Below are positions 1,714 to 62,145 of a stretch of 64,000 nucleotides of DNA, piece by piece. A program made the translations under genes and the position numbers. Below the pieces are notes generated by a model. It saw only the letters and a list, made by a program, of their open reading frames with translations. It searched no databases and was not told the origin of the DNA. The DNA is from an uncultured Candidatus Sumerlaeota bacterium (lineage in GTDB: Bacteria; Sumerlaeota; Sumerlaeia; SLMS01), in assembly GCA_964420455.1 (NCBI GenBank), contig CAYQTO010000002.1:8796-72795 (forward strand). Direction: 5' to 3'. How positions within the stretch are numbered: position 1 is the stretch's first letter; each line of letters begins with the position of its first letter.

Positions 1714-2556
1714 ATGAACCGGTCCTTCCATATCCTGGCCATAATCGCAGCGCTGTTCAACACCGCGCCCGCACAGACGTATTCAACACTCAACGACCAA
1801 ACCTTCCGCCTCGGCAATATCTGGACGTTTCAGGAACTGAGCGCGGGCTTCGGACCCGACGGCGCTTACACCGACACCGACGTGGAGACCTTCCGGATCC
1901 CACGTCTCGCCACCATCGACGGCCGCGAGGCGGTGATCCTCGAACTGCGCGACGACGACGGCCCGGCCACGGAACTCGCCTGGATCGCCAACGCCACCGA
2001 GTTCCGCGAACTCCAGCAACTCTACCGCGACGCCTCCGGGGTGGCCACGCTCGGTTTCGCCTACGAATCCGATTCCGGCGCGCCGGGCATTCTCGCCCTT
2101 CCCAAGGAGGTCACTGCGGGCCAGTCCCTCCCACCGGATACCGGCGATGGGGTGCTGGCGATTTCCGCAGGCGTCGCCTTTGGCCGCGTGGAATCCACCG
2201 TCCTTTTCGAGGGCCGCGAGACACTGACCACCCGCCTCGGCGACTTCGAATGCACCCGTATCCGTGTCCGTCTCCGCCAGGATTTTGATGGGCTCCGGTG
2301 GACGGAGACGCGCACTTTTTGGCTTCACTCCGTCTGCGGGATCGTCCAACTCGCCCTCGAAAGCGAGCTCCAGGAAAATGGCGCAACCACCGCCTTCGAG
2401 ACCTCGGACTTCTCACTGGTCTCCGCGGTGGTGCCCGGTCTGAACCGCTACGTCACGGCGGACAAGTTGCTCGCCCGCGGGGCGGTTGCGGATGCGGACT
2501 TCGAGCCGACAGGGGACGGGCGGCTCGACGCGGCGGATCTTCTCGCCACCCCGTGA
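1714..2556 (+). CDS. Secreted hypothetical protein (signal peptide MNRSFHILAIIAALFNTAPAQ)
   Basis: Within ORF 1393..2556. ATG at 1714 is preceded by AGGAG at 1701-1705. Hydrophobic signal peptide. The upstream part of the ORF is low-complexity. Confidence 0.7.
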   Translation: MNRSFHILAIIAALFNTAPAQTYSTLNDQTFRLGNIWTFQELSAGFGPDGAYTDTDVETFRIPRLATIDGREAVILELRDDDGPATELAWIANATEFRELQQLYRDASGVATLGFAYESDSGAPGILALPKEVTAGQSLPPDTGDGVLAISAGVAFGRVESTVLFEGRETLTTRLGDFECTRIRVRLRQDFDGLRWTETRTFWLHSVCGIVQLALESELQENGATTAFETSDFSLVSAVVPGLNRYVTADKLLARGAVADADFEPTGDGRLDAADLLATP

Positions 2557-2599
2557 AAAGGTTCTTGGCCTTCTTTCCGGCGGCCACCAACCTGTACCC

Positions 2600-3385
2600 A
2601 TGACCCTGCATGCGGAAGACCTCCGGCGCTATCTGGCCGACGTTACCGGGCGGCCGGTGGTCCTGCGCATGAACGACAACCAGCACCGGGTAATCAGCGC
2701 GAACCGCATCGGGGCGACGCCCGGGATTCGCGTCAGCCTCCACCGGATGTTCCTCGAGGCGGACGCCCCCACGCTCGAGGCACTGGCGGCCTTCATCGTC
2801 CGGCCAACGCCTGCCAACCGCGGGGTCGTCCGCACTTTCATTGCCGCCCACGAACACCTTCTGGGTACGCATGTTCCAACGCGTCCGCCCCGGCCGCCGG
2901 CGGGGACCCCGCGGGGCCGCGTCTTTCACCTCCGCCATCGGGCCGACGCCCTCAACGGCCACTACTTTGCCGGCAACCTCGATTTCCGCATCATCTGGGG
3001 CCGGTCTGTCCGCGGAGGCCGGCACCAGCGCCACGTCACTCTCGGTACCTGGAACCGTCTCCAACGCACCATCCGCATCCACCGCATGCTGGATCACCCC
3101 CACGTGCCCCCGTACTACATCGACTTTGTGATCTATCATGAGATGGTGCATATCGTGGTGCCGAGCGAGGCCTGCGGGGGGGGACGGCTGGTGCATCACT
3201 CTCTCGAGTTCCGGGACCTCGAGCGGCAATTCGGCTGCTACGAAGCCGCCGTTGCCTGGGAGAAGCGATGGATGTCGCGTCTGATCCGTGCGTGGAACGG
3301 TGGCGCGGAGCTCCCTCCGGAGGCCGCCCGCGTCTCCCATCCGCGCGCTTGCGCCGGCTTTCCCGGGCACCTTTCCTCCTCATAG
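2600..3385 (+). CDS. YgjP/DUF45-like (M48-related) zinc metallopeptidase, HExxH
   Basis: Within ORF 2486..3385. The HEMVH motif is followed by the HSxEF pattern typical of DUF45/YgjP. Start at ATG 2600 (MTLHAEDL). The antisense 305-aa ORF is Pro/Arg-rich junk. Confidence 0.65.
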   Translation: MTLHAEDLRRYLADVTGRPVVLRMNDNQHRVISANRIGATPGIRVSLHRMFLEADAPTLEALAAFIVRPTPANRGVVRTFIAAHEHLLGTHVPTRPPRPPAGTPRGRVFHLRHRADALNGHYFAGNLDFRIIWGRSVRGGRHQRHVTLGTWNRLQRTIRIHRMLDHPHVPPYYIDFVIYHEMVHIVVPSEACGGGRLVHHSLEFRDLERQFGCYEAAVAWEKRWMSRLIRAWNGGAELPPEAARVSHPRACAGFPGHLSSS

Positions 3386-3472
3386 CCTTGCCCACCATGG
3401 CACAGGCCCTGCACTTCCGTTGCAAATCGCGCCGTGCGCCCGTGGCCGCCCGCCCCCACCAAGGAAACCTCC

Positions 3473-4759
3473 ATGCTCCGCAAGGTCGTCCTGAGCCTCA
3501 TCCTCATCGTTGTGCTGCTCGTGTCGGGCTTCGTGGCCATCGAGTTGGGGATTGCGCTGAGGCCAACGCCGGAGCGCGAGGAGCGGGGGGCGGCGCCGCT
3601 TGCCGTCCGGGTGGAGCGGCTGGAGCAGGGCGACGTCGTTGAGCAGGTGCGCGGCTTCGGCCTGGCGGAGCCGATCCGCCGCGCCCGCGTCGCCGCCCGC
3701 GTCTCCGGACGGCTCGTCGAGATGAACGAGTCACTCCGCGTGGGTCGCCGGCTTTCTGCGGGGGACGTGGTTGCCAGGATCGACCCCCTTCCTTACGAGG
3801 CCGCCGTGGCCCGTGCCGTCGCCCTCGTCGCCGAGACCGGCGAGTCGATCCGCAAGGTGGACTCGGACATCGAGGAGAACGCACGCAAGCGCGAGCTGGT
3901 GGAAAGCGACCTTGAGATCGCACGGTCCGAGGTCCGGCGCGCCACCGAGTTGTTCGAGGAGGGCGTGGCGAGCGAGAGCGCCCGGGACCAGGCCATCTCC
4001 GCCCTGCGGACCGTCGAGCAGCGCCTGAGCGACATCGACCGCGAGGCCGCCTCCCTGCGCATCGAACGCGTCCGTTTCGAGGCGACCCTTCGCGCCCGCA
4101 GCAACGACCTCAAGATCGCCGAGGCCGACCTCGACTATACAACCATCCGCGCCCCCTTCGACGGCATCATCGAGGAACGGGTGGCCGAGAAGGGCGACGT
4201 TCTCTCGCCCGGGCAGACGGTGATCGTGCTGGTGGATCCGAGCGCCCTCGAGCTCCCGATCGAGGTCCCCGCGTCCCAGGCGCGGTCCCTCGCCATCGGC
4301 GCCGCCGCGGAACTCCGCACGGACGAGACGCCCCCACGCCTCACCCGCGGCACCGTCGAGCGCATCGCCCCCACCATCGCCCCCAATTCCCGCACCGTCA
4401 GCGTCTATATCACCATCCCCAACCAGAGGGGCGAGTTCGACCCCGGAACGTTCCTCACCGCCGAGGTCGCCGGACGCCGCTTCGAGGATGTCTACTCCGT
4501 GCCACGCCGCGCCATCGTCGACGGCCGCATCTTCCTCGCTCGCAACGGCGTTGCCGCATTGCTCCAGCCCCGCTTCTTTGTCTATCTGGACGACGTTGCC
4601 CTCACCCGCGACGACCTCGGCGACGGGTCGCTCCTGATCACCACCGGACTCGAGCAGATCTATGAGGGGGCTCCCGTCACGATCCCCGATGCCTCCCCCG
4701 CCGCGCCCCTCGAGGCGCCCCCCGCCGAATCCCTCAGCATGTCCGCCGCCCAGCCATGA
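3473..4759 (+). CDS. Efflux RND transporter periplasmic adaptor subunit (HlyD/MFP family)
   Basis: ORF 3434..4759. N-terminal TM anchor MLRKVVLSLILIVVLLVSGF. Coiled-coil region and beta-barrel (TIRAPFDGII) motifs of membrane fusion proteins. AAGGA precedes the ATG at 3473. Confidence 0.85.
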   Translation: MLRKVVLSLILIVVLLVSGFVAIELGIALRPTPEREERGAAPLAVRVERLEQGDVVEQVRGFGLAEPIRRARVAARVSGRLVEMNESLRVGRRLSAGDVVARIDPLPYEAAVARAVALVAETGESIRKVDSDIEENARKRELVESDLEIARSEVRRATELFEEGVASESARDQAISALRTVEQRLSDIDREAASLRIERVRFEATLRARSNDLKIAEADLDYTTIRAPFDGIIEERVAEKGDVLSPGQTVIVLVDPSALELPIEVPASQARSLAIGAAAELRTDETPPRLTRGTVERIAPTIAPNSRTVSVYITIPNQRGEFDPGTFLTAEVAGRRFEDVYSVPRRAIVDGRIFLARNGVAALLQPRFFVYLDDVALTRDDLGDGSLLITTGLEQIYEGAPVTIPDASPAAPLEAPPAESLSMSAAQP

Positions 4760-25843: not shown

Positions 25844-28800
25844 GTGACCGCGTCCCGCCCGTCATCTTCCAGTGCCGCCGTGGCCTCCGAGGTTCCCCCC
25901 GACCTCCCCCAGGACACGCTGGCTTCCTACAACCCGGAGCGCAGCCGGATGCTGGCGGCGACGGTCATCAGCGATTCCGGCGATCGGACGATTCCAGAAG
26001 AGGACATCCCGAACACCTCGCCCACGAAAAGCATCGAGCTGCCCCACCCGAGCCTCTCGCGCTGGTCCGTGGTGATCGATAGCGACGACGGCGGGGAAGC
26101 CGCTCCGGCGCTGCTGCCGCAGGCAAACTTTCGCCTGAAGGAGATGGTGGGGCGCGGGGGCTTTGGCGAGGTGTGGGAGGCGCGCCAGGCCAGCCTCGAC
26201 CGGATTGTCGCGGTGAAGCGCCTGCGAAAGGACATCTCGTCGGATGGCGACGACGAGGACACGGCGGCGCGGCGCCGCTCGCTGGAGGTCGCCTTCCGCC
26301 AGGAGGCGATCACCACCGCCAACCTCGATCATCCGAACATCGTGCCCGTGCACGACCTCGGGGTCGACGAGGACGGCTCTTCGCTGCTCGCCATGAAGTA
26401 CGTGCGCGGCACTCCCTGGAACAAGATGATCGCGGCGGACTTCGTCAGCCTCTCGCCGATCGACTTCCTGGCACGGCACATCCCGATCCTGATCGACGTG
26501 GCCCAGGCGGTTGCCTTCGCCCACGCCCGCGGCGTTGTCCACCGCGACCTCAAACCTTCGCAGGTCATCGTTGGCGAGTTCGGCGAGACCATGCTGATGG
26601 ACTGGGGGCTGGCGGTAATCTTCGACCTCGAGGTGATGGCCCGCCATTGCGATCAAGACAGCTGCGAACTGTTGCCGACGATCCACAACGCGACGAACCC
26701 GGCGGGGACGCTGGCGTTCATGGCTCCGGAGCAGACCGAGCGCCACGCGCGCAACATCGGCCCCTGGACCGATGTCTATCTCCTCGGCGGCACGCTCTAT
26801 TACCTCCTTTGCGGGCGTTTGCCCCATCGTGGTGAGGACCCGCGGACCGTGTTCCTCAAGGCGAAGATCGGCGAGTTCATCCCGCCGGAGGAGGCGGAGC
26901 CGGGCCGAGAGATCCCGCCGGAGCTTTCAGACCTCGCGCGCCACGCCATGATGGCCGACCGCAACGCGCGCGTCGGTTCCGCCCGCGAGTTCTTCGAACT
27001 TCTGCAGGACTGGTTGTCGGGCGCGTCGAAACGTCGGGAATCGATTCGCCTTTCGGACGAGGTGACCCGCGAGCTGGACACTTGCGATGCCCGCTACGAC
27101 GTGTTGGCCGACTCCCTCGCGAAGGTCGAGCAGTCGGCGGCCTTGTGGGGTGACAATCCGTCGGTGCCCGCCCTCCGCCAGCGGGCCACCGCGATGTTCG
27201 CCCGCACGGCTCTCGAAAACGGCGACCTCGTGCTCGCGCGGCTCCAGACCGGGAACCTCCAGCCGGGCCAGACCCGCGACGAGATCGCCCTTCGCATCGA
27301 CGAACTCGAAAAGCGCCAGCGCACCCGCGAACGCCAACGCCGCGTGTTTCTTGTCGGGTCGATCTTCTTCCTCGCGGTAATCCTGCTGGTTGTCGCGGTC
27401 TTCAACAGGCGGTTCCTGGAGGAACGGGACTTCGCCCGCGAGGAAGCGCGCCGCGTTCGCGAGGCCCGCAACGACGCCCAGCGCCTCGTCAATTTCATGA
27501 TGGAGGACCTGCTGGAGGAACTCCAGCCTATGGGGCGGCTGGATCCCATTCGGGAGGTCAGCAGCCGGGTGCTCCAGTATTACGATAACGTGCCGGGGGA
27601 AGAGATGCGGCCGGAGGTGGCGCTCCAGCACGCACGGGCCCTCCGGGCGGTGGGCCTCGTCGAATACGAGTCCGGCAATTCGCGCGGCGCCTTGGAATAC
27701 CTCACCAAGGCCGCGCAACTCTTCGACGAAGCGGCTGCAGCACCCACCTCTTCCGTCACGCCCGCCCGCGACCGCGTCTTCGTCTATCTGCTGCTCGCGT
27801 CGGTGCAGGCGGACCGCAACGACCTCAAGGCCGCCACCGCCTCCCTCTCCCGGGCGCTCCTCGCCTTCTCCGGCAGCCTCCACCTCATGCCCGCCGGCGA
27901 CGCCATCCGTGCGATCCTTCCTCCCCCGGAGGAACTCCGCGTCTATACAAGTGGCGATGCCGACCCCGCCGCCATCCCGCGTCTCTTTCGCCTCCTCCTC
28001 GAGGCATCCAACGCGACTTTTGCCGCAGACCCGGATCAGCGGGTCGAGTTCAGCACCACCGTCGCCCTCAACTCGCTCGGTGACCTGGCCTTCTCGGGCA
28101 TACCCGAGCCGCAACTGATGGAGGCGGTGGTGAACGCCCGTCGCTTTCGGCGCGAGGCCGCCGAGGCCAACCCGCAAAACATCGCCGTGGCCCAGGGGTA
28201 TCTCATCTCGTCGTACCGGCTCGGGGATCTGTACCGGAAGGCCGGCGACCTGACGGGGGCGGTGGCGGTTGTGCAGGAAGCGCTGGATTTCGCGCTGGAG
28301 CGGGAAGCGCGATCCCCCGGCCAGTATCAGTGGAAGCAGGCAGCGAGCGAGGGCCGGGGGCGCCTCGGGCTCCTCCACCTCGAGTCCGGCAACATGGCGA
28401 TGGCACGGGCATACCTGCGCGATGCGGTGGCGGACGCGGAGGCGCTGGTGGAGCGCGATCCGCAGAACGCGCTCTGGCAGTACAACCTCGCGGTGCGGCA
28501 GCGGGAGGCCGGCGACCTTGCCCTCGCCGGGGGGGATCTCTCCGGCGCGCTCGACGACTTCACCGCCGCGCAGGCCATCAGCGACCGCCTCTACAGCCGC
28601 GACCCCGAGAACTACCGCTGGCGGCGCGACTTCAACGGGTTGTTCGAGGGGTTGTTCCTGTTGGCCTCGCAGGCGCGGGAAGGGGACGCGCCCGAGGTTG
28701 CCCGGGAGGCCGCCCGCCGCGCCTTCGACATGGCCCGCCTCGACGAGGGGCTTCGCCCCGGCGCCCCGGAGATCCAGCGCAACGTCATCGCCGCCGCGGA

Positions 28801-29146
28801 CGTCTATACGCGGGTGCTGCTTGAGGAGGGAGACGGGGCGGCGGCATCCCGCGTGCTTGAGTTTGGCCTTTCCCGCGCGCGGTTGCGGGCTGGCGGGAGC
28901 ACCGGCGATCCCGCTTACATGAGTCTCCTTGCGAGGCTGCTGCTGCTCGAGGCCGCCCAGGGTCTCGCCTCCGGCGACACGGCCGCCGCCTGGAACTCCG
29001 CGGAAACCGCCGCCCGCCGCCACTGCGGCATCCGTGGTGTACTCGACGACGAACTCCAGGAATGGCTCCGTCCGCTCCGGCTCGAGGACCCCAATCGCTG
29101 GGACGCCCTCCTTGACTTCGCACCCAACGGAAACCCGTTGCCGTAG
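25844..29146 (+). CDS. Serine/threonine protein kinase with one TM segment and large C-terminal TPR-repeat domain (1100 aa)
   Basis: ORF 25844..29146 (GTG start; alternative ATG at 25949). GRGGFGEVW...AVKRL, HRDLKPSQVIV and DWGLAV Hanks kinase motifs. TM VFLVGSIFFLAVILLVVAVF. TPR-like helical repeats to the C-terminus. Confidence 0.85.
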   Translation: MTASRPSSSSAAVASEVPPDLPQDTLASYNPERSRMLAATVISDSGDRTIPEEDIPNTSPTKSIELPHPSLSRWSVVIDSDDGGEAAPALLPQANFRLKEMVGRGGFGEVWEARQASLDRIVAVKRLRKDISSDGDDEDTAARRRSLEVAFRQEAITTANLDHPNIVPVHDLGVDEDGSSLLAMKYVRGTPWNKMIAADFVSLSPIDFLARHIPILIDVAQAVAFAHARGVVHRDLKPSQVIVGEFGETMLMDWGLAVIFDLEVMARHCDQDSCELLPTIHNATNPAGTLAFMAPEQTERHARNIGPWTDVYLLGGTLYYLLCGRLPHRGEDPRTVFLKAKIGEFIPPEEAEPGREIPPELSDLARHAMMADRNARVGSAREFFELLQDWLSGASKRRESIRLSDEVTRELDTCDARYDVLADSLAKVEQSAALWGDNPSVPALRQRATAMFARTALENGDLVLARLQTGNLQPGQTRDEIALRIDELEKRQRTRERQRRVFLVGSIFFLAVILLVVAVFNRRFLEERDFAREEARRVREARNDAQRLVNFMMEDLLEELQPMGRLDPIREVSSRVLQYYDNVPGEEMRPEVALQHARALRAVGLVEYESGNSRGALEYLTKAAQLFDEAAAAPTSSVTPARDRVFVYLLLASVQADRNDLKAATASLSRALLAFSGSLHLMPAGDAIRAILPPPEELRVYTSGDADPAAIPRLFRLLLEASNATFAADPDQRVEFSTTVALNSLGDLAFSGIPEPQLMEAVVNARRFRREAAEANPQNIAVAQGYLISSYRLGDLYRKAGDLTGAVAVVQEALDFALEREARSPGQYQWKQAASEGRGRLGLLHLESGNMAMARAYLRDAVADAEALVERDPQNALWQYNLAVRQREAGDLALAGGDLSGALDDFTAAQAISDRLYSRDPENYRWRRDFNGLFEGLFLLASQAREGDAPEVAREAARRAFDMARLDEGLRPGAPEIQRNVIAAADVYTRVLLEEGDGAAASRVLEFGLSRARLRAGGSTGDPAYMSLLARLLLLEAAQGLASGDTAAAWNSAETAARRHCGIRGVLDDELQEWLRPLRLEDPNRWDALLDFAPNGNPLP

Positions 29147-29191
29147 CCGCATCCGCACCACCAAAACCGGATTCGACCCCAAACGGAATCC

Positions 29192-30958
29192 GTGGCCTTG
29201 CTGCTCTGGTTCATTCCCCTCTTCGCGATCCTCCTGATCAACGTCCTGGTGGCGTTGTGGGTGGGGCGCCAGCGCCAGACGACGCGGGCCGGGTTCTTTC
29301 TCCTCATGAACGCGCTGACGCTCATTCTGTGGAGTGGCGGCGTTGTCCTCTATCGCACCTTTCGCGAGGACGCGCCCCAGTTCCTCATGCTGCCGTACCT
29401 CGCGGCGCTCCTGGTTCCCGGCAACTTTCTGTACTACGCCCTGACACGGCCTCACCCGCTGCGCGAATCGTGGTCCGGCGCGCCGCTCATCACCGTCATC
29501 TTCGGTCCCGCTATTCTTCTCACTCTTTTCGAGTACCTCTTCGGCGACGCGTTGTCCATCGCCGCGAGCTATACGCTCGGCCCCGGCGATCCCACCTTCG
29601 ATTCCTGGCCCCAACGCGCCACCGTTCTCTACCTCCTCATCCTCCTCATCACCACCCTCGCGGTTCTTGGCGTCCGCTACTACACCACGAGCGGGCCCGA
29701 GCAGAACACCTCCAAACATCTCATCGCCGTCCTGTTCGGGCCGATCTTCTTCGCGCTGCTGTTCTGGGCCTCCGCGGCCCGGGACATTCCGGGGGCGATT
29801 CCCTCCCCGGGATTCCTCTTCGCCCTCATCGCCCAGGGCGGCCTCCTTGTCGTCCTCCGCCAGGAGGAACTTCGAAACCCGCGCACGCTCACGCGCTCCC
29901 TCTACTATCTGACGACGGTGTTGATCGCCTTCGTCGTCATGAGCCTCGTCGCCCAATTCTACGAGCTGGTGCAGGGCGTCTTCCTCATCGACGAGACGGC
30001 ACTGCTGGTGCTTCTGGGCGTGACCGCGACCCTGATGGCGCTGTCTCGCTTCAGCCTCATCGAGCACACCTTCGACCGCCTCTTCTTCACGCGCGCGGCG
30101 GAGTACCGCCGGCTGGTGGCGGAGACCCGGGCGGAACTGCGCGAGACCCGCGACCGTCTCCGCCGGGCCGAGCGCCTCTCCGTCGTCGGCGAGGTCGCCG
30201 CCCGCGTCGCCCACGAGATCAAGAACCCCCTCGGGCCCATCCGTGGATATACACAGATGATGCGCGAGAAGGTCGAGGCCGCCGAAACCCTCGAGGACCG
30301 CGAGCGGTTCCTCAGCTACCTCGAAGTGATCCAGGAGGAGGTCGACAACATCGACCGGCGGGTGCGTGAGTTCCTGGCGAGCGCGGGGGAGCCACGGCTC
30401 GCCCTCGAGCAGGTCGACATGAACGACATGGTAGGGCGGTGCGCGCGCGTGTTAAAGCTCGAGTTGACGGCAGGCAAGGAACTGGCCGGCGCGATTCTTC
30501 CCGTCCAGGTGCTGATGGAACTCGAGTCGGGACTCGGTAAGGTCGAGATGGATCCCGGCCGGTTCGAGGAAGCGCTCTTCAACATCGCGCGCAACGCGGT
30601 CGATGCGCTGCTCGGCCAGACCCGCGGGCGGATCGTCTTCCGCACGGCCAGCGTTCCAGGCCCGGACGGCACGGAGGGCATCCTGGTCACCGTGCTCGAC
30701 AACGGACCGGGCTTCGATCCCGCCGCCATGGACCGTCTGTTCGAGCCCTTCTACACGAAAAAGGACACGGGCACGGGGCTGGGCCTCGCCATCGCCAAGG
30801 CCACCGTGGAGGCCCACGGCGGGACCATCGTGCTGCGAAACCGGCCCCAGGGCGGCGGCGAGGTGCGCCTGTGGATGCCGCGTGCGGCTCGCGAGAATCC
30901 CGGCGCCCTCCTCCCCAAACCCTTCCCCGCGGTGGAGGTACCCTCCGGCGAGGGATGA
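29192..30958 (+). CDS. Sensor histidine kinase with N-terminal polytopic membrane sensor domain (no cognate response regulator adjacent)
   Basis: ORF 29192..30958 (GTG start). About 7 TM helices. HisKA H-box VAHEIKNPLGPIRGY. HATPase_c N/G1/G2 boxes (DNGPGF.., GTGLGLAIAK). Confidence 0.85.
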   Translation: MALLLWFIPLFAILLINVLVALWVGRQRQTTRAGFFLLMNALTLILWSGGVVLYRTFREDAPQFLMLPYLAALLVPGNFLYYALTRPHPLRESWSGAPLITVIFGPAILLTLFEYLFGDALSIAASYTLGPGDPTFDSWPQRATVLYLLILLITTLAVLGVRYYTTSGPEQNTSKHLIAVLFGPIFFALLFWASAARDIPGAIPSPGFLFALIAQGGLLVVLRQEELRNPRTLTRSLYYLTTVLIAFVVMSLVAQFYELVQGVFLIDETALLVLLGVTATLMALSRFSLIEHTFDRLFFTRAAEYRRLVAETRAELRETRDRLRRAERLSVVGEVAARVAHEIKNPLGPIRGYTQMMREKVEAAETLEDRERFLSYLEVIQEEVDNIDRRVREFLASAGEPRLALEQVDMNDMVGRCARVLKLELTAGKELAGAILPVQVLMELESGLGKVEMDPGRFEEALFNIARNAVDALLGQTRGRIVFRTASVPGPDGTEGILVTVLDNGPGFDPAAMDRLFEPFYTKKDTGTGLGLAIAKATVEAHGGTIVLRNRPQGGGEVRLWMPRAARENPGALLPKPFPAVEVPSGEG

Positions 30959-47328: not shown

Positions 47329-48822
47329 TCAATACACCGTCCAGCCGAGGGGATCGGTGGCAGGCGTCGGGTCGACGACGGTCTTCTCCGACTCGTTCCC
47401 CAGCCGGTCCACCGCCGTGACGACCACCCCCTCGACGCTGCCCGAGATCACCCGCTGGGTGGAGGCCGCGTTGAGGATCACATACTCCCAGGCGCTGTTG
47501 CGGTATTGATAGAAGACATAGTTGCGGACGTCGGCGGGGTCCACCGGGGTCCACTGGACCAGGTTGTCGGTGATGGTGACGTCGGGCGGGGCGGGGGCGA
47601 CGTCGTCGAGCCAAGGCATCGGGGGCCGGAGGGCCTGCTGGCTGTAGGGCCCGTTCATGAGCAGCGTGCGCTGCCCGTCGATGTTATTCTGGAGCCACTC
47701 CATGCGAAAGTGCACGTTGCCGGTGGCGCCGCTGCGGGCTTGGGTTTCCTCGACCTGGCGGACGATTTCCTCCGGGGGCCAGTTGGTGGAGCCGGAGGTC
47801 TTGTAGTTGGCCAGCCCGGGCCAGATCTCCCGGTCCTGCACGTTTTCGGAAATCCACCAGTCCATGAGGGCCGTATAGCTTTGGGCGGGGGGATCGATCT
47901 CCCAGTAGATTTGCGGCGTCAGGTAATCGAGCCAGCCCTCGCGGAGCCAGAGGCGCGAGTCGGCGTAGAGAGAGGCGTAGGCGTCGAAGCCCGCAATGCC
48001 CGGCGGGTTGCCCGGTCGCCAGATGCCAAAGGGGCTGATGCCGAACTGGACGTGGTCCTTCTCGGCGCGTATATCGTTATAGACGTCGCGGATGAAGGTA
48101 TTGACCGAGTCGCGGCGCCAGTCCGCCTTGTCGAGGGTGCCACCTCCATTGAGGTAGGCCTGGTAGGTGCCCGCATCGGGGAACTCCTCCGATGTGGGAT
48201 ACGGATAGAAATAGTCGTCGAAATGGACGCCATCGACGTCGTAGCGCGAGACGACGTCCATGATGACGGAGCGGGAGTAATCCTGGACCTCCGGATCGCC
48301 GGGGTTGAGCCACTTGTATCCGCCGTAGTCGACCACGAGGTCCGGGTTGGTGCGGCTGACGTGGGTGGAGTGGAAGCTGGAGCCGGAGCTGACGCCGGCG
48401 CGGTAGGGGTTGAACCAGGCGTGGACCTCCATACCCCGGGCGTGGGCGAGGTCGAGGACCTCCTGGAGGGGGTCCCACGCGGGGCTGGGGGCCGTGCCCT
48501 GCGACCCCGTGAGGTACCGCGACCAGGGCTCTATGGTGGAGGGGTACATGGCATCGCATTCCGACCGGACCTGGAACACGAGGGCGTTGAGGCGCATGGA
48601 GGCGGCGGTGGAGACGATCGCCTGGAGCTCGGCGCGGGCCTGGCTCGTGGTGAGCGAGGACCGTGAGGGCCAATCGAGATTGACGACGGTGGCCACCCAG
48701 GCGGCGCGGAACTCCCGCGGCACCAGGTCGTCGGGCGGCGGAGCGGGGGGCGTGCCGGCCGTTGCGCCCGCCGCCGCCAGCAGGCACGCGCCCGCCACGA
48801 TTCCTCTCATCCCCATGTTCAT
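47329..48822 (-). CDS. Glycoside-hydrolase-like family 10 (GHL10/DUF4015-type TIM-barrel) secreted protein
   Basis: Within ORF 47329..49323(-). Start MNMGMRGIVAGACLLAAAGATAG (48822). ..FRAAWVATV.NLDWP... and HAWFNPYRAG blocks are typical of the GHL10 family. Confidence 0.65.
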   Translation of the reverse strand: MNMGMRGIVAGACLLAAAGATAGTPPAPPPDDLVPREFRAAWVATVVNLDWPSRSSLTTSQARAELQAIVSTAASMRLNALVFQVRSECDAMYPSTIEPWSRYLTGSQGTAPSPAWDPLQEVLDLAHARGMEVHAWFNPYRAGVSSGSSFHSTHVSRTNPDLVVDYGGYKWLNPGDPEVQDYSRSVIMDVVSRYDVDGVHFDDYFYPYPTSEEFPDAGTYQAYLNGGGTLDKADWRRDSVNTFIRDVYNDIRAEKDHVQFGISPFGIWRPGNPPGIAGFDAYASLYADSRLWLREGWLDYLTPQIYWEIDPPAQSYTALMDWWISENVQDREIWPGLANYKTSGSTNWPPEEIVRQVEETQARSGATGNVHFRMEWLQNNIDGQRTLLMNGPYSQQALRPPMPWLDDVAPAPPDVTITDNLVQWTPVDPADVRNYVFYQYRNSAWEYVILNAASTQRVISGSVEGVVVTAVDRLGNESEKTVVDPTPATDPLGWTVY

Positions 48823-48911
48823 CGTTTTGTTTCCCTTGGAAAAATCGGGGTCCTCCCCCGGAGCAACGAGGGCACCCGATTGCCCACCGGGATTCAAACA
48901 AAAAGCGGAGT

Positions 48912-51041
48912 TCAGGGCGTGGGCGCCGCGAGCCAGTAGTGGGCACTGGTCCAGGCGCCGCGGTGGGGCTCGGGGGTGATTTCGATGGTCCAGGCGGTGC
49001 CGCCGGCCTCGTCGAAGATCGACCCGAGGTCGAGCCGCACGTCGCGGACTGTCTCCGGCACCGGGACGGTGCGCTCCGCCCGGTAGCCGGTCGTGTTCGA
49101 GACGACGGCCACGCGGAGGCGCTCCGCCGCCGGTTCGGCGACGGGCGTTGCCGGGCGCCCGATCCGCATTACCAGCGTGGAGACACCGGCGGGAAAGGTG
49201 GCGGGGGCGAAGTGGAAGGCCTCGCCGCGGACGATGCGGGCGCCCTCCACGGCGGCAAGGGTGCCGGTGGTGGACCCGTCGCTGATCTCGAGACGGACCG
49301 TTGGCGCGAGGGGTTGGGGCCACGCCCGGTGGTTGCCGTCATGGGGTCCGATGGCAAACGTATAGACGGCGGTGCGTTCCGAGGCGAGGTCGGCAACGTC
49401 CACCTCCAGGAGGGCGCGCTCGCCGGGGCTCCCGGGCCACCGGTCGCCCGCGTCCATTGCCCCCCAGTCCACCGGCGTCGCCTCCAGCACGATCCCCGAC
49501 GTGATCGAGGTTCGCGGGATCGAGACGGACCACTCAGGCGCGAGACGGGGAAAGGCGGGGCTCCACCAGTTGGGATAACTGACGAGGAGGCGGGGACGCC
49601 GGTCGGCGGCAAGGCGGGACAGCGCCTCGAGCACCGCTCCCTCGCCATGGGGCGTGGCCCGGGTGAATTCCCCGCTGCCAAGCCCCACCAGGTCGTGCTT
49701 CAGCCCATTGGTGTAGTAGGCGAGGACACCGGCGTCGGTGATGGCGACGGGTTCGCGCTCGGCGGCGAGGGGAAACGTTGCCCGACGCAGCAGGTGGAAG
49801 ATGTCCCGGCTGTTGCGGCCATGCTCCGCCGTCCAGAAGACGAGCGAGGGGAGGGACGCCACGAGGAGCGCGAGGCCGACGGCCTTCAGCGCGGTTTCCT
49901 CGTGTTGCTGGAAGAGCTGGCTCAGGCGCCACAGGCCAACGACCCCGAGGACCACGAGCAGCACCGTGTACGGGGCGAGGTAGCGTTGCTGGTGGATGAA
50001 GGGGAGGCCGCTGGCGGCGACGCTGGCGAGGCCAAGGAGCCAGGCGAGGACGAGCAGGGTGCCGCCGGCGGGTCGGCCGTCGCGGCTTTCCCCCACCACC
50101 AGCATCCCCGCCCCAAACAGACCGGCCACCGCGAGGCCCGGCGCCAGGTAGGGGAGCGACGTGGTCCCCTTGAACGCCGCATAGGCGTCGTCCGGGACGA
50201 GGTTGGCGTGAAAGCGGACGATGCCGGCAAGGGTGTCACCCATGACCGCGAACCGGTCCGCCCAGCCATAATAGGGCGCGGAGGAGAGGCCCTTGATCGT
50301 GAGTCCGGCGGGACGCCAGTCGCCCGTCGCCACCCACAGGATCGCCAGCCAGCCACCCAGCATGAGGAAGCCGAGAAGAAAGAGCGGTGCGGGAATGGCG
50401 GGTGACTGGCGCCCGCGGCGGAGCGCCACCGCCAGCCCGGCGACGGCCAGCAGCACGCCCTCGGGCCGGACCAGCGGCAGGAGCGCCACCGCCGCGAGGG
50501 CCACCAGCCGCCCGTGGGGACGCCCCGCCTGCCACCAGGCATGGGCCCCCAGCACGCCCCCCAGCAGCAGCAGCGTATAGACGCCGGTCTCCATGCCCGA
50601 GAGAAAGTTCCACAGGAGGTGGCCGTTGGCGAGCACCAGGCCACCGGCGATCGCCCCCGGCAGGCAGTGCGACAGGCGCTTGGTCAACTGGTAGGTCCAA
50701 ACCGGCAGCAGCATCCATTGGAGGACACCAAAGGCGAAGGCCGCCGCGGCCCCCCGCACGCCGTCGAAGCCGAGCGCCAGCGCCGGGGAGAGCAGCAGGA
50801 CGTAGAGCGGGCTGGTCATGCCGCCGGAGGGGGCGGCACCCTCCGTATAGACGAGGGGCGAGCCGGCCGCCAGTTGCCGAGCGTACTGGAGATGGATATA
50901 CGAATCGTCGAGCGGGAGCATGAAGTGACCGCCGGCCAGATTCCAGGACACGGCGGCGACGACCACCGCCTGGACGAAGGCCACCAGCGCGAGGCCGACG
51001 AACCACTTGCGGTCGTCCGGATCTGTCTCGAAGGGGAACAC
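48912..51041 (-). CDS. Large polytopic membrane protein with C-terminal periplasmic domain (GT-C-like glycosyltransferase candidate, 709 aa)
   Basis: ORF 48912..51041(-), GTG start. About 13 TM helices then about 290 soluble residues. 89 bp upstream of the GHL10 gene on the same strand. Confidence 0.65.
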   Translation of the reverse strand: MFPFETDPDDRKWFVGLALVAFVQAVVVAAVSWNLAGGHFMLPLDDSYIHLQYARQLAAGSPLVYTEGAAPSGGMTSPLYVLLLSPALALGFDGVRGAAAAFAFGVLQWMLLPVWTYQLTKRLSHCLPGAIAGGLVLANGHLLWNFLSGMETGVYTLLLLGGVLGAHAWWQAGRPHGRLVALAAVALLPLVRPEGVLLAVAGLAVALRRGRQSPAIPAPLFLLGFLMLGGWLAILWVATGDWRPAGLTIKGLSSAPYYGWADRFAVMGDTLAGIVRFHANLVPDDAYAAFKGTTSLPYLAPGLAVAGLFGAGMLVVGESRDGRPAGGTLLVLAWLLGLASVAASGLPFIHQQRYLAPYTVLLVVLGVVGLWRLSQLFQQHEETALKAVGLALLVASLPSLVFWTAEHGRNSRDIFHLLRRATFPLAAEREPVAITDAGVLAYYTNGLKHDLVGLGSGEFTRATPHGEGAVLEALSRLAADRRPRLLVSYPNWWSPAFPRLAPEWSVSIPRTSITSGIVLEATPVDWGAMDAGDRWPGSPGERALLEVDVADLASERTAVYTFAIGPHDGNHRAWPQPLAPTVRLEISDGSTTGTLAAVEGARIVRGEAFHFAPATFPAGVSTLVMRIGRPATPVAEPAAERLRVAVVSNTTGYRAERTVPVPETVRDVRLDLGSIFDEAGGTAWTIEITPEPHRGAWTSAHYWLAAPTP

Positions 51042-51250
51042 GCGGCGGGAGCACCCCGGCGGTTGGAATGCGCCCGAGGCTTTGGGGGGCGTCGCTCAAG
51101 GTCAACGGCCATCGCCGGCCCACGGCTTTCATTGGCAGCAGGGCCCGACCCCCACTAGGAGGAATCGTCAGGAGAAACACCGTGCCCTTTCTGGACCACG
51201 CCGCCACCACCCCCATCGATCCGGAGATCGCGTAGCAGGTCGCCCGCGAC

Positions 51251-52297
51251 ATGGCCGACCCGATGAATGCCTCGTCGGTGCATCGCCATGGCCAGCGTGC
51301 CCGCGCCCTCCTCGAGGAAGCACGCGAGGAGATCGCCGACCTCCTGGGCACCGACCCGGATACGGTTGTCTTCACGTCGAGCGCCACCGAGGCCAACAAC
51401 CTCGCCCTGCGGGGCTACACCCTGAGACAGAACCGCGCCGGCCTTCTCCCAAGGATTCTCACCTCCGACCTCGAGCATGCCTGCATCCGCGAGACAGCCG
51501 CGTGGCTCGGGCGGACGGAGGCCGCCGAAATCATCAGGCTGGCCGTGGGCGAGGACGGCCGGGCCGACCTCCACGGCGCGCCCCCGGCGGACCTTCTTTG
51601 CCTGATGGCGGTCCAGAACGAAACCGGAGTCATCCAGGACGCCACCGCGGCCCGGGCCCACCGCGACGCCCATAGCGGCCTCTGGCTTTGCGACGCCACC
51701 CAGGGGCTCCTGTCGCTCGACGTCTCGCTCCCCTCGCTGGGCGCGGACCTCGTCAGCCTGTCGTCGCATAAGATCCACGGCCCGGCGGGGGTGGGGCTGC
51801 TGGCGGGTCCGGGTATCTGGCAATTGGAACCGCTGCTCACCGGCGGGCCGCAGGAGGGGGAGCTGCGGGCGGGGACCCAACCGGTGGCCCTGATCCGCGG
51901 CTTCGTCGCCGCCGCACGAAAGGCGATTCTTCAGCAAAATCGGCACAGGGAACGGATGGAGCAATTGGAGGCGCTCTTTTTGAGTCACCTTTCCCGCCAC
52001 ACCGGACCATTCTGGATCAATGGGGGCAATCCCCGGGTTCCCGGCTTTCTCAACCTGAGCTTCCCTGGCCTGGCCGGGGCGGATGCGGTCATCGCCCTTG
52101 ATGTGAAAGGCTTTTCGGTCTCCTCCGGGTCCGCCTGCTCCACCGGCGTGGTCCAGAATTCAGCGGCTTTAGCCGTGATGTTCCCTAACATGGAGGACCG
52201 TGTGAGGGGCGGGATCAGAATCGTGTTCGGGCGGGGAACGACGGAGGCGGATGTCATATCGTTATCTGAAGAAATGGCCATGCTCGTCCGTCGGTGA
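51251..52297 (+). CDS. Cysteine desulfurase (NifS/IscS class-V aminotransferase). The ORF as called lacks the conserved N-terminus, which lies upstream of an in-frame TAG.
   Basis: ORF 51251..52297. Collinear with NifS (..TSSATEANN.., SLSSHKIHGPAGVGLL PLP-lysine block, SSGSACS). Upstream in the same frame is GTG 51182 (AGGAG 7 nt upstream) encoding VPFLDHAATTPIDPEIA, then TAG at 51233-51235. Confidence 0.8.
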   Translation: MADPMNASSVHRHGQRARALLEEAREEIADLLGTDPDTVVFTSSATEANNLALRGYTLRQNRAGLLPRILTSDLEHACIRETAAWLGRTEAAEIIRLAVGEDGRADLHGAPPADLLCLMAVQNETGVIQDATAARAHRDAHSGLWLCDATQGLLSLDVSLPSLGADLVSLSSHKIHGPAGVGLLAGPGIWQLEPLLTGGPQEGELRAGTQPVALIRGFVAAARKAILQQNRHRERMEQLEALFLSHLSRHTGPFWINGGNPRVPGFLNLSFPGLAGADAVIALDVKGFSVSSGSACSTGVVQNSAALAVMFPNMEDRVRGGIRIVFGRGTTEADVISLSEEMAMLVRR

Positions 52298-52422
52298 TGA
52301 TCTGGACTCGGGGTTGCTGACGGGGATCCACAAGGCACCAATATTTCTTTCGCTTGCCGAAGGATTTAGGGCTTGCCCCAGAGACCCCGCTCTCCACATT
52401 GTCGACGTTGAGGAATATAAGA

Positions 52423-52794
52423 ATGCCCATGCGTTCTCTCACCCCCCAGATGCGCAGCAAGGTTGCCGAGCGTTTTCGTGCACTCGGCGACGAGACCCGG
52501 CTTCGCCTGCTGGTTCGCCTGTACGAAGGCGAGTGCAATGTTTCCCGCCTGAGCCACGAGCTCGGGGTCGGCCAGGCATCCGTCTCCAAGCACCTGGCGA
52601 CCCTCCGTAACGTCGGATTCCTCAAGGTCCGACGCCAGGGTGCCCAGTCCTTCTACAGCATCTGCGACGACGCCATGTTCGACATCTGCAACCAGATGGC
52701 GGCCGGCGTGTTGCGCCATCACAGCGAGATGAACGAGTCGCTCGGCCTGCGGGGAAAGAAGACCAACGGGCGCACGGTGGAGACCGGGGTGTGA
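52423..52794 (+). CDS. ArsR/SmtB-family metalloregulatory transcriptional repressor
   Basis: Within ORF 52354..52794. ATG 52423 with AGGA 8 nt upstream. wHTH ..LGDETRLRLLVRLYEGECNVSRLSHELGVGQASVSKHLATL. Confidence 0.8.
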   Translation: MPMRSLTPQMRSKVAERFRALGDETRLRLLVRLYEGECNVSRLSHELGVGQASVSKHLATLRNVGFLKVRRQGAQSFYSICDDAMFDICNQMAAGVLRHHSEMNESLGLRGKKTNGRTVETGV

Positions 52795-52857
52795 TCCAGA
52801 GGCCTCTCCCTCGCGGTGCCTGACCGGGCCAATCACTCCCAAGACCGGAGGTGAGCC

Positions 52858-54540
52858 GTGACGGTTCGCAAACTTGTTGTCGTGGGTGGCGTTGCTGGCG
52901 GAGCCAGCTGCGCCGCCCGGGCACGCCGCCTCAGCGAGGATGCCGAGATCGTCCTCGTTGAACGTGGCCCCTTTATTTCCTTCGCCAACTGCGGTCTGCC
53001 TTATCACATCGGCGGGGAAATCCCCGACCGTGGTAAGCTTATCCTTCGCACCCCGGAGGAGCTTAACCGCCAGTTCCGCCTGGACGTCCGGGTTCGCACC
53101 GAGGCGGTGTCGATCGACCGCGAGGCGGCAACGGTCCGCCTCCGAAATCTGGCAACCGGCGAGGAGACCGACGAGTCCTACGATGCCCTGGTGCTTTCCA
53201 CCGGCGCGGCGCCCCTTCGCCCGCCGATCCCGGGAATCGACCAACCGGGCATCTTTTCACTCCGAAACATCCCAGACATGGATGCGATCGGGGCATGGAT
53301 GGACGAGACGGAGGCCCGGCAGGCGGTCGTCGTTGGCGGCGGCTACATCGGGCTCGAAATGGCGGAGCAACTCCATCACCGGGACCTCCGGGTGTCCGTG
53401 GCCGAGGCGCTCCCCCAGATCATGGCCCCCCTCGACCCCGAAATGGCCGCCATCCTCGAGGGCGAACTGCGCCAGCGCGGTATCGACATCCACCTTGGTT
53501 CGAAGGTGGTTGGGTTCGACGGACCCGAGGAGGGCAAGGGCGCGCCGACGGTGGTGCTCGAGAACGGTACCCGCCTGCCCGCGGACATCGTGGTGCTGGG
53601 GCTTGGGGTGCGGCCGGACGTGCCGCTGGCGCGCGAGGCGGGGATCGAACTGGGCGAGCGCGGCGGCATCCGCGTCGATGAATACAACCGCACGAGCGAT
53701 CCGAGGATTTATGCGGTGGGCGATGCGGTGGAGGTCCGCGACGGGGTAACCGGCGAGTGGTGCCTGGTGCCGCTCGCGGGGCCGGCGAACCGCCAGGGCC
53801 GCAACGTCGCCGACACGATCTTCCTTCACCCGACGGCATACCGCGGAACCTTCGGCACGGCGGGGGTGCGCCTCTTTCAATACGTGGCGGCGTGCACCGG
53901 TGCGAACGAGAAGCGCCTGCGGGCCGCGGGAATCCCCCACAAGGCGATCCACCTCCACCCGGGCAACCACGTCGGCTATTACCCCGGTGCCACACCGATC
54001 GCGATGAAGCTTCTCTTCTCGCCGGAGGACGGGCGCGTTCTGGGCGCCCAGGCCGTTGGCCAGGAGGGTGCCGAACGTCGCATCGACGTAATCGCGACCG
54101 CCATCATGGCGGGGATGACGGTCGACGAACTGGCGCACCTGGAACTGGCGTACGCGCCGCCCTTCGGCGCCGCCAAGGACCCCGTCAACATGGCCGGCAT
54201 GGCCGCGCAGAACATCCTCCGAGGCCTGACGGACGTCGTTCACTGGGACGAGGTGGAACTCCTCGATCCGGAGAAGGACTTCCTGCTGGATGTGCGTAAC
54301 GAGGGGGAACTGACCGTCGGCCGCATCCCCGGCGCCGTCCACATTCCCTTCCCGGAACTGCGCGAGCGCCTCGACGAACTGCCGCGCGACAAGCGCATCG
54401 TGGCACACTGCGCCACCGGGCCCCGGTCCTACTTCGTCACCCGGATTCTCAACCAGAACGGTTTCCGGTCGGCGAACCTCAGTGGCAGCTACGTCACCTG
54501 GTCCAAGGCCCCCAAGAAGGTTCCGGCCCCCTCGCCCTAG
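52858..54540 (+). CDS. CoA-disulfide reductase / NADH oxidase family flavoprotein with C-terminal rhodanese domain (CoADR-RHD)
   Basis: 560 aa, GTG start with GGAGG 6 nt upstream. VVVGGVAGGASCA FAD motif. Redox-active FANCGLPYHIGG (Cys). Second Rossmann VVVGGGYIGLE. C-terminal rhodanese with active-site Cys in VAHCATGPRS. Confidence 0.85.
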   Translation: MTVRKLVVVGGVAGGASCAARARRLSEDAEIVLVERGPFISFANCGLPYHIGGEIPDRGKLILRTPEELNRQFRLDVRVRTEAVSIDREAATVRLRNLATGEETDESYDALVLSTGAAPLRPPIPGIDQPGIFSLRNIPDMDAIGAWMDETEARQAVVVGGGYIGLEMAEQLHHRDLRVSVAEALPQIMAPLDPEMAAILEGELRQRGIDIHLGSKVVGFDGPEEGKGAPTVVLENGTRLPADIVVLGLGVRPDVPLAREAGIELGERGGIRVDEYNRTSDPRIYAVGDAVEVRDGVTGEWCLVPLAGPANRQGRNVADTIFLHPTAYRGTFGTAGVRLFQYVAACTGANEKRLRAAGIPHKAIHLHPGNHVGYYPGATPIAMKLLFSPEDGRVLGAQAVGQEGAERRIDVIATAIMAGMTVDELAHLELAYAPPFGAAKDPVNMAGMAAQNILRGLTDVVHWDEVELLDPEKDFLLDVRNEGELTVGRIPGAVHIPFPELRERLDELPRDKRIVAHCATGPRSYFVTRILNQNGFRSANLSGSYVTWSKAPKKVPAPSP

Positions 54541-60690: not shown

Positions 60691-62145
60691 ATGCCCATAC
60701 GCGCCAGCGCCCTCGCTCTTCTCGCCGCCACGCCGGTCCTGACGCCCGCCGGGGTGCACCCCATCCGCGGCGAGATGATCGCCTTAATCCAACAGAGCGA
60801 TGCCCCCGTTTCCGCGGACTTTCGCGAACGCCACCTGCCAGGTCTCGAGTCCCTTGCGACCGAACTCGGCAGCCCCCTCCGCGTCGTTGATGTCACCGAC
60901 GCCGGCGCACCCGCGGAGGTCGCCCTGACGCCCCTCATCGTGTTTCAGAATCACAAGGGCCGGTCGATTTTTCAGGGGCGTTATGCAGACATGGGCAAGG
61001 TGCGCCACTTTGTCCGCACATCGCGCTTCGTCCCCCAGGGCGAGGGTGGCCTCGTCAAGGATGCCATTCCCGTGGCGGCGATGGGGCGCGCCCGGGTCGG
61101 CGCCCCGATCAAGATCACCCCCCTCGCGGACATGGCCGATCCGGCCTTCGATTTTGGGGCCTTCGAGCAGCAGGCCCATGCCGCCGTCCGCTCCGCCTTC
61201 GAGACGATGACCGTCCACCCCGAGGCCCGCTTCGGCCGCTCCGACCGACTCTTCTACATGGACTTCTACCCCTACGCGGCGGAGGGCGGCAACCTCGCCA
61301 TCCTCATGGCCTTCTATAGCCAGTTCGACTGCGAGAATCCCGTCTATACAGAGTACGGGGACGTGGTGTTTGGCCCGATGGGGGAGGGGGGCCGGCTCTT
61401 CGCCGAGGCGGCCCGAATGCTCGAGAGGGAAATGGATCGCCAGATTGCGACGTCGACGATTGGCGACGGATTCGTCCCGGTCCCCAGCGATACCGCGATC
61501 GTTTCGTGGGAGTCCCTGGGGCTTGCCCTTCCCCCCGCCCCGGTCGTGGACACCGCCAGCCTGCCGGACGGATTTACGCTCGGGCAGGATTGGCGAGTGC
61601 TCCCCGAGTCCGTCGAGGGGGCGCCGCTCCTCGCCTTTCGGTTCCCCCCTCCGTTGGACAACTACGTGGGCTCCGCCGGCCGGATCGAGGGGGGCCTCCG
61701 CCTTGGCCCCAACGCCAGCCTCGACGGCGCCACCGGCCACGTCGTCGTTCCTGTCGAGTCCCTCACCATGGGCGAGCCGGGACTTGATGCCACCGTCTAT
61801 AAATCTATCAGTGCCGACGCCTATTCCACGGCCCGCTTCGACCTGGAGTCCGTCTCGGCAAAAACCCGAGGCCCCCTCGAGTTCGGTACCGCCCGGCCCT
61901 TCACCGGTCGTGGCACCTTTGCCATGAAGGGCATCGAGATTCCTTTGGAGCTCCATGCGGAGTTGACCCCGACGGTGACCGAGGCCGGCACCGTGCGACT
62001 CCTCGCGACGGCCACCTTCTCGATCCGGCTCCGCGAGGCGTTCGGCATCGAGGGCCCGCCGGGGCCGGCCCCGCTCAACGATACGGTCGAGTTCTTTCTC
62101 GTCTTCCCCCTCGAGGCAGCCAGCCCCGGAAAGATCGGCGGCTGA
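60691..62145 (+). CDS. Hypothetical secreted protein (484 aa)
   Basis: Within ORF 60619..62145. ATG 60691. Signal peptide MPIRASALALLAATPVLTPA. Confidence 0.55.
   Translation: MPIRASALALLAATPVLTPAGVHPIRGEMIALIQQSDAPVSADFRERHLPGLESLATELGSPLRVVDVTDAGAPAEVALTPLIVFQNHKGRSIFQGRYADMGKVRHFVRTSRFVPQGEGGLVKDAIPVAAMGRARVGAPIKITPLADMADPAFDFGAFEQQAHAAVRSAFETMTVHPEARFGRSDRLFYMDFYPYAAEGGNLAILMAFYSQFDCENPVYTEYGDVVFGPMGEGGRLFAEAARMLEREMDRQIATSTIGDGFVPVPSDTAIVSWESLGLALPPAPVVDTASLPDGFTLGQDWRVLPESVEGAPLLAFRFPPPLDNYVGSAGRIEGGLRLGPNASLDGATGHVVVPVESLTMGEPGLDATVYKSISADAYSTARFDLESVSAKTRGPLEFGTARPFTGRGTFAMKGIEIPLELHAELTPTVTEAGTVRLLATATFSIRLREAFGIEGPPGPAPLNDTVEFFLVFPLEAASPGKIGG

Follow-up and report, generated by a model that had tools for sequence, protein, structure and literature searches.

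Group-I cysteine desulfurases are recognized by an N-terminal LDxAATTP motif, an SSHK motif carrying the PLP lysine and an SSGSAC loop carrying the catalytic cysteine; the loop consensus SSGSAC(T/S) is characteristic of group I. In E. coli IscS, the small domain is formed by residues 1–15 and 264–404 and carries the active-site cysteine, and the large domain begins at residue 16 (PMC2854127). The closest solved structure to the protein considered here is that of Archaeoglobus fulgidus IscS2 (PDB 4eb5, 4r5f), which is collinear with it over the full length from residue 1 (E 3e-54).

In-frame amber codons within enzyme genes are known from recoding systems: methylamine methyltransferases carry pyrrolysine, and some phages and uncultivated lineages have reassigned TAG. 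A different picture is presented by young pseudogenes and by nonsense alleles segregating in bacteria: one point substitution creates a stop, no further lesions follow, the sister species has an intact orthologue, and the mark of earlier purifying selection can still be seen.

Here, we analyzed a desulfurase gene in a 64-kb stretch of DNA (64,000 nucleotides, G+C content 66.8%), referred to below as the window. The gene carries the three sequence hallmarks of the group-I enzymes, from which it differs in that its frame is broken at codon 18, that its product scores under every NCBIfam equivalog cut-off and that no IscU, NifU or Suf scaffold gene adjoins it. Its likeness to amber recoding systems is limited to the in-frame TAG in an enzyme gene; unlike in those systems, genes here commonly end in TAG, no relative shares it at this site and no decoding machinery is found in the window. 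The locus shares all the listed features of young bacterial pseudogenes and nonsense alleles, and nothing sets it apart from them.

The interrupted gene and its neighborhood

The features of the locus are collected in Table 1. Every coordinate of the original prediction, from the AGGAG and the GTG through the TAG and the open frame behind it to the ATG restart, proved correct on re-reading the sequence. Past the amber codon, the desulfurase frame contains neither a second stop nor a frameshift, and the TAG at codon 18, which prevents the frame from being full-length, is thus the single lesion. A further Shine-Dalgarno-like stretch, TAGGAGGA, lies at 51156–51163 and contains GGAGG at 51157–51161.

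Table 1. Features of the interrupted desulfurase locus and of the flanking genes (positions in the window).
Feature	Position	Strand	Remarks
709-aa hydrophobic membrane-like protein, divergent neighbor	48912–51041	−	No Pfam or NCBIfam match
AGGAG, Shine-Dalgarno-like	51170–51174	+	7 nt 5' of the predicted native GTG; read from the sequence
Predicted native GTG start (51182–51184) and codons 1–17, VPFLDHAATTPIDPEIA	51182–51232	+	From the sequence and the homologue alignment
In-frame amber TAG, codon 18	51233–51235	+	From GAG (Glu) via G-to-T at 51233
Remaining desulfurase frame, codons 19–371 and TGA (52295–52297)	51236–52297	+	Uninterrupted
ATG, Met24, first in-frame start past the TAG	51251–51253	+	Annotated start, 348-aa product
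ArsR/SmtB-family HTH regulator, 123 aa	52424–52794	+	NF033788, 78.4 bits against a cut-off of 55
CoA-disulfide-reductase-like flavoprotein with C-terminal rhodanese domain	52858–54540	+	Ends in TAG

The 348-aa product of the ORF at 51251–52297 is identical to the database protein P0001, which comes from one NCBI contig (78,744 bp) and for which PF00266 (Aminotran_5) is on record as a precomputed match. When the frame is joined across the amber codon, the resulting 371-residue protein is predicted to be a PLP-dependent cysteine desulfurase of group I (IscS/NifS-like). The NCBIfam DndA, NifS and IscS models match residues 3–347 to 3–370 with E-values of 1e-64 to 1e-54. DndA scores best (218.8 bits against a cut-off of 480), followed by NifS (212.2 against 530.75) and IscS (192.4 against 548). 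No score exceeds the cut-off of a specific equivalog (IscS, NifS, DndA or SufS), and since all of them fall under the curated values, only the family-level name 'cysteine desulfurase family protein' is justified. The PLP-lysine motif is present as SLSSHKIHGP, its H196 and K197 being invariant in 32/32 aligned sequences, and the catalytic-cysteine loop reads VSSGSACSTG, with C319 invariant in the same 32-sequence alignment. The nearest homologues are 50–56% identical, and those with names belong to Candidatus Sumerlaeota MAGs.

Over 51182–54540, the gene order is desulfurase, ArsR/SmtB regulator and CoA-disulfide-reductase-like flavoprotein with a rhodanese domain. The exact 123-aa product of the regulator gene is on record; the BigR, TsoR and CmtR models match it only under their cut-offs. 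The rhodanese domain of the 560-residue flavoprotein extends to residue 550. At another Sumerlaeota locus (L001, 9938–13787), a flavoprotein–rhodanese protein with 68% identity is encoded ~1.1 kb downstream of a desulfurase homologue. The recurrence of this pairing in a distant Sumerlaeota MAG suggests a conserved persulfide/sulfur-trafficking module.

Neither an adjoining Fe-S scaffold gene nor a desulfurase paralogue within the window was found. Because no scaffold gene adjoins the desulfurase and its neighbors are the ArsR regulator and the CoA-disulfide-reductase/rhodanese protein, the enzyme probably has an accessory, sulfur-trafficking role, and its loss may therefore be tolerated. On the divergent side, the first 177 residues of the 709-aa protein are 96.6% identical at the amino-acid level in the sister-species contig described below. 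The 3' end of its gene is overlapped by ~400 nt by another minus-strand ORF (47329–49323), whose true start, given this overlap, probably lies further downstream.

Native start and the ancestral state of codon 18

All homologues in the alignment (31/31) begin at the position of GTG 51182 or a few residues from it, and A. fulgidus IscS2 pairs its residue 1 with residue 1 of the joined protein; the alignments of the homologues and of both PDB entries begin at residue 1–3. The original prediction had raised the possibility that the downstream Met is the natural start in orthologues, and this fails against both the homologues and the IscS2 structure. The product of codons 1–17 fits the N-terminal family consensus M-x-[FY]-LDHAATTP-x-DP(RV); across 32 sequences, Asp5 of this motif never varies, and the conservation of Ala7, Thr9 and Pro11 reaches 90% or more. 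All of its residues (17/17) recur at the start of P0121, a protein of the sister species. Judged from these comparisons, the 17 upstream codons are no chance reading. GTG 51182 is the predicted native start and ATG 51251 an internal codon (Met24), since the homologues and the crystal structure begin at the position of the GTG. The original prediction thus named the right family, the genuine start codon and the interruption by TAG.

The 90% cluster of P0001 has one other member, P0121, a 372-aa protein reading ...DPEIAEQVAREMADP... and encoded on contig L013 of the Logan assembly of SRR28089850. This contig aligns to positions 50457–52400 of the window with 90.4% nucleotide identity over 1,944 bp, and it carries the same divergent upstream gene, so that the two loci are orthologous (syntenic). 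It has the same GTG start and, at the same place, a ribosome-binding site that contains AGGAG (AGGAGG there). The codon aligned with the TAG of the window is GAG (Glu), which makes the lesion a single derived G-to-T transversion at 51233; of the two sense codons guessed beforehand, GAG and CAG, it is the former that occurs in the syntenic sister contig. Position 18 is variable among homologues, with E the commonest residue (17/54), followed by D and A. A TAG at this codon was seen in none of the 31 aligned homologues, nor in L013.

Two further Logan contigs (L014 and L015), reached through a cluster mate of the ArsR protein, are ~89–90% identical to the window and ~99% identical to L013. They belong to the same sister species and cover the desulfurase gene at its 3' end only.

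Identity between the window and L013 varies along the alignment. It amounts to 94.0% in the upstream gene, 95.0% in the 140-nt divergent intergenic region and 95.7% in desulfurase codons 1–23, against 88.0% in the gene body and 83.5% in the downstream spacer. The 5' part of the locus (50457–51250) is thus more conserved than 51251–52400, which could be due to regulatory constraint on the promoter region that both genes share or could mark a boundary of recombination.

A young nonsense allele or a consensus error

For the desulfurase gene, the comparison of the window with L013 gave a dS of 0.36 and a dN/dS of 0.155. Amino-acid differences were polarized with 54 outgroup sequences, leaving out the start codon and the stop itself; four derived replacements fell on the window lineage and eight on the sister lineage. 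All 38 invariant alignment columns (38/38) are retained in the window copy. There are neither several lesions nor relaxed constraint, as would be expected of an old pseudogene, and by these measures nothing suggests unconstrained evolution of the window copy. Either the stop arose very recently or it is not real.

We lean towards the former, that is, a very young null or hypomorphic allele which arose by one G-to-T transversion, GAG to TAG. Its youth would follow from the undecayed state of the rest of the gene. Bacterial genomes commonly carry some genuine nonsense alleles, and per genome, real nonsense or pseudogene alleles outnumber substitution errors of the consensus.

The other reading, under which position 51233 owes its T to an artefact of sequencing, assembly, consensus or strain mixture and the real gene has GAG and is intact, is possible but rather unlikely. 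Such a T could stem from a miscalled base, from an oxidative G>T change where coverage was low or from the allele of a minor strain in the MAG consensus, and G>T is a classic class of oxidative-damage library artefact. In its favor, the substitution stands alone in an otherwise perfectly conserved gene, the sister species has GAG, and the source is metagenome-assembled, with P0001 on one NCBI contig only and all relatives being MAGs. Against it, no in-frame stop occurs in the other ~40 coding-like ORFs of the 64-kb window. A scan for further stops inside coding-like stretches of the window returned nothing beyond two matches, one at 60784, which is the boundary between neighboring ORFs in the same frame, and one at 3731, which is a minus-strand stop opposite the plus-strand ORF 3386–4759. 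No truncation was seen in the further window ORFs that were checked. As the other ORFs are free of stops and the checked genes are complete, the assembly does not look error-prone.

A lone stop with neither a second lesion nor relaxed constraint looks exactly the same whether it is a new mutation or a consensus error, and the window sequence alone cannot separate the two. Genome and metagenome contig searches for the window species in other assemblies found only relatives with at most 55% identity, and an exact look-up of P0001 for a second assembly returned no contig on record. Cluster look-ups of three neighboring proteins led to the same NCBI contig only. A protein search with the 149-residue N-terminal fragment was uninformative, yielding one weak match and not even the fragment itself.

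The original prediction had listed four causes for the interruption. Our analysis reduces them to two mundane ones, a recent nonsense mutation and a base-calling or assembly error. The term 'pseudogene', in the sense of an old, decaying copy, finds no support, given the dN/dS of 0.155 and the lack of an excess of derived changes; recoding, discussed below, is not supported either.

Predicted consequences of the amber codon for the protein

Coding-like ORFs in the window were picked by a codon-position G+C scan (n = 40); 21 of them end in TGA, 12 in TAG and seven in TAA. The next large gene downstream (52858–54540) is among those that end in TAG, 10 residues past its last Pfam domain. This genome uses TAG as an ordinary terminator. 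Same-frame pairs of adjacent ORFs were considered as candidates for other TAG-split genes and rejected, the pairs being separate complete genes; those checked include 2486–3385 with 3434–4759 and 25844–29146 with 29192–30958, and the genes concerned are Lon, fumarase and a Ser/Thr kinase followed by a histidine kinase.

The last of these pairs occupies 25844–30958 on the plus strand. Its first gene, for a 1100-aa Ser/Thr protein kinase with TPR repeats, has TAG as its stop, and a histidine kinase (HisKA and HATPase_c) follows 45 nt further on in the same frame. A second TAG-split gene at this place was rejected, as the two are separate and complete.

Since TAG is an ordinary terminator, ribosomes starting at GTG 51182 would stop after 17 residues and release a 17-residue peptide, and the enzyme would not be made at normal levels. 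Two leaks could leave some residual product. One would be rare near-cognate readthrough of the TAG; because position 18 tolerates many residues, the product of readthrough would be functional. The other would be termination followed by reinitiation at ATG 51251, giving a protein without residues 1–23. This ATG, 15 nt 3' of the TAG and 23 codons 3' of GTG 51182, is the sole plausible reinitiation site; inspection of the sequence found no canonical Shine-Dalgarno motif 5–10 nt upstream of it.

The missing residues 1–23 include the invariant Asp5 as well as the strand with the LDxAATTP motif, which corresponds to IscS residues 1–15. Residue 3 of the joined protein aligns with IscS residue 6, and by this alignment and the IscS domain limits the truncation would cost the small domain its N-terminal strand and the large domain its first part. 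By analogy with IscS, the form without residues 1–23 would most likely be unstable or inactive.

The 348-aa protein might instead be functional, with the TAG having merely moved the start and coupled it to a 17-codon leader ORF. A distance of 15 nt lies within reach of reinitiating bacterial ribosomes, and both the PLP lysine and the catalytic cysteine are preserved downstream. We nevertheless regard this as quite improbable. None of the homologues examined starts at the position of ATG 51251, no Shine-Dalgarno motif precedes it, and the loss takes away an invariant Asp together with the nearly invariant AxTxP motif. In IscS, the missing segment is a structural strand of the very domain that bears the catalytic cysteine (PMC2854127).

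Still less probable is a real, fixed and functionally meaningful amber codon, either as a leaky TAG that throttles the accessory desulfurase or with a genome-encoded suppressor that restores the protein. If the leaky version were true, a throttled desulfurase would stand beside a persulfide-handling ArsR/CoADR-rhodanese module.

Several further scans of the window bear on how the codon is read. No tRNA genes were found in the 64 kb, and no Rfam family matched anywhere across the whole window. The sequence around the TAG has no stable RNA fold, being less structured than shuffled sequence (z = +1.8). A scan for consensus promoters and terminators gave nothing useful. At the site itself, orthologues have sense residues of many kinds instead of a kept TAG, and as a terminator TAG is neither rare nor absent. 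Codon reassignment was rejected on the stop-codon usage (12/40 ORFs ending in TAG). Programmed readthrough, suppression and Sec/Pyl insertion, all considered in the original prediction, likewise find no support, in view of this usage, the TAG-free orthologues and the tRNA-free window.

The least credible explanation, by which the amber codon is deliberately decoded (through pyrrolysine, a suppressor tRNA, reassignment of the codon or programmed readthrough) to give the full-length protein, could draw on the otherwise intact gene and on the many residues tolerated at position 18, but has against it the 12 coding-like ORFs, the next large gene included, that TAG terminates, the want of this codon in the sister species and all other homologues, the lack of a tRNA gene, an Rfam element or a second TAG-interrupted gene in the window, and the unstructured RNA at the site.

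Together, our results point to a gene of a known type with an unremarkable premature stop that stems from one base change or from a miscall, and not to a recoding signal. The deposited 348-aa protein starting at ATG 51251 is a gene-caller by-product of the premature stop. The locus is better annotated as a disrupted gene with its native start at GTG 51182 or, if the T is an error, corrected to GAG. For the metabolic reconstruction of a Sumerlaeota-like lineage, a loss of this desulfurase, whose gene adjoins a putative persulfide/CoA-disulfide module, would be a minor point, and the finding is mainly a matter of annotation hygiene. If the allele is real, it would mark a population without, or with very little of, one accessory cysteine desulfurase.
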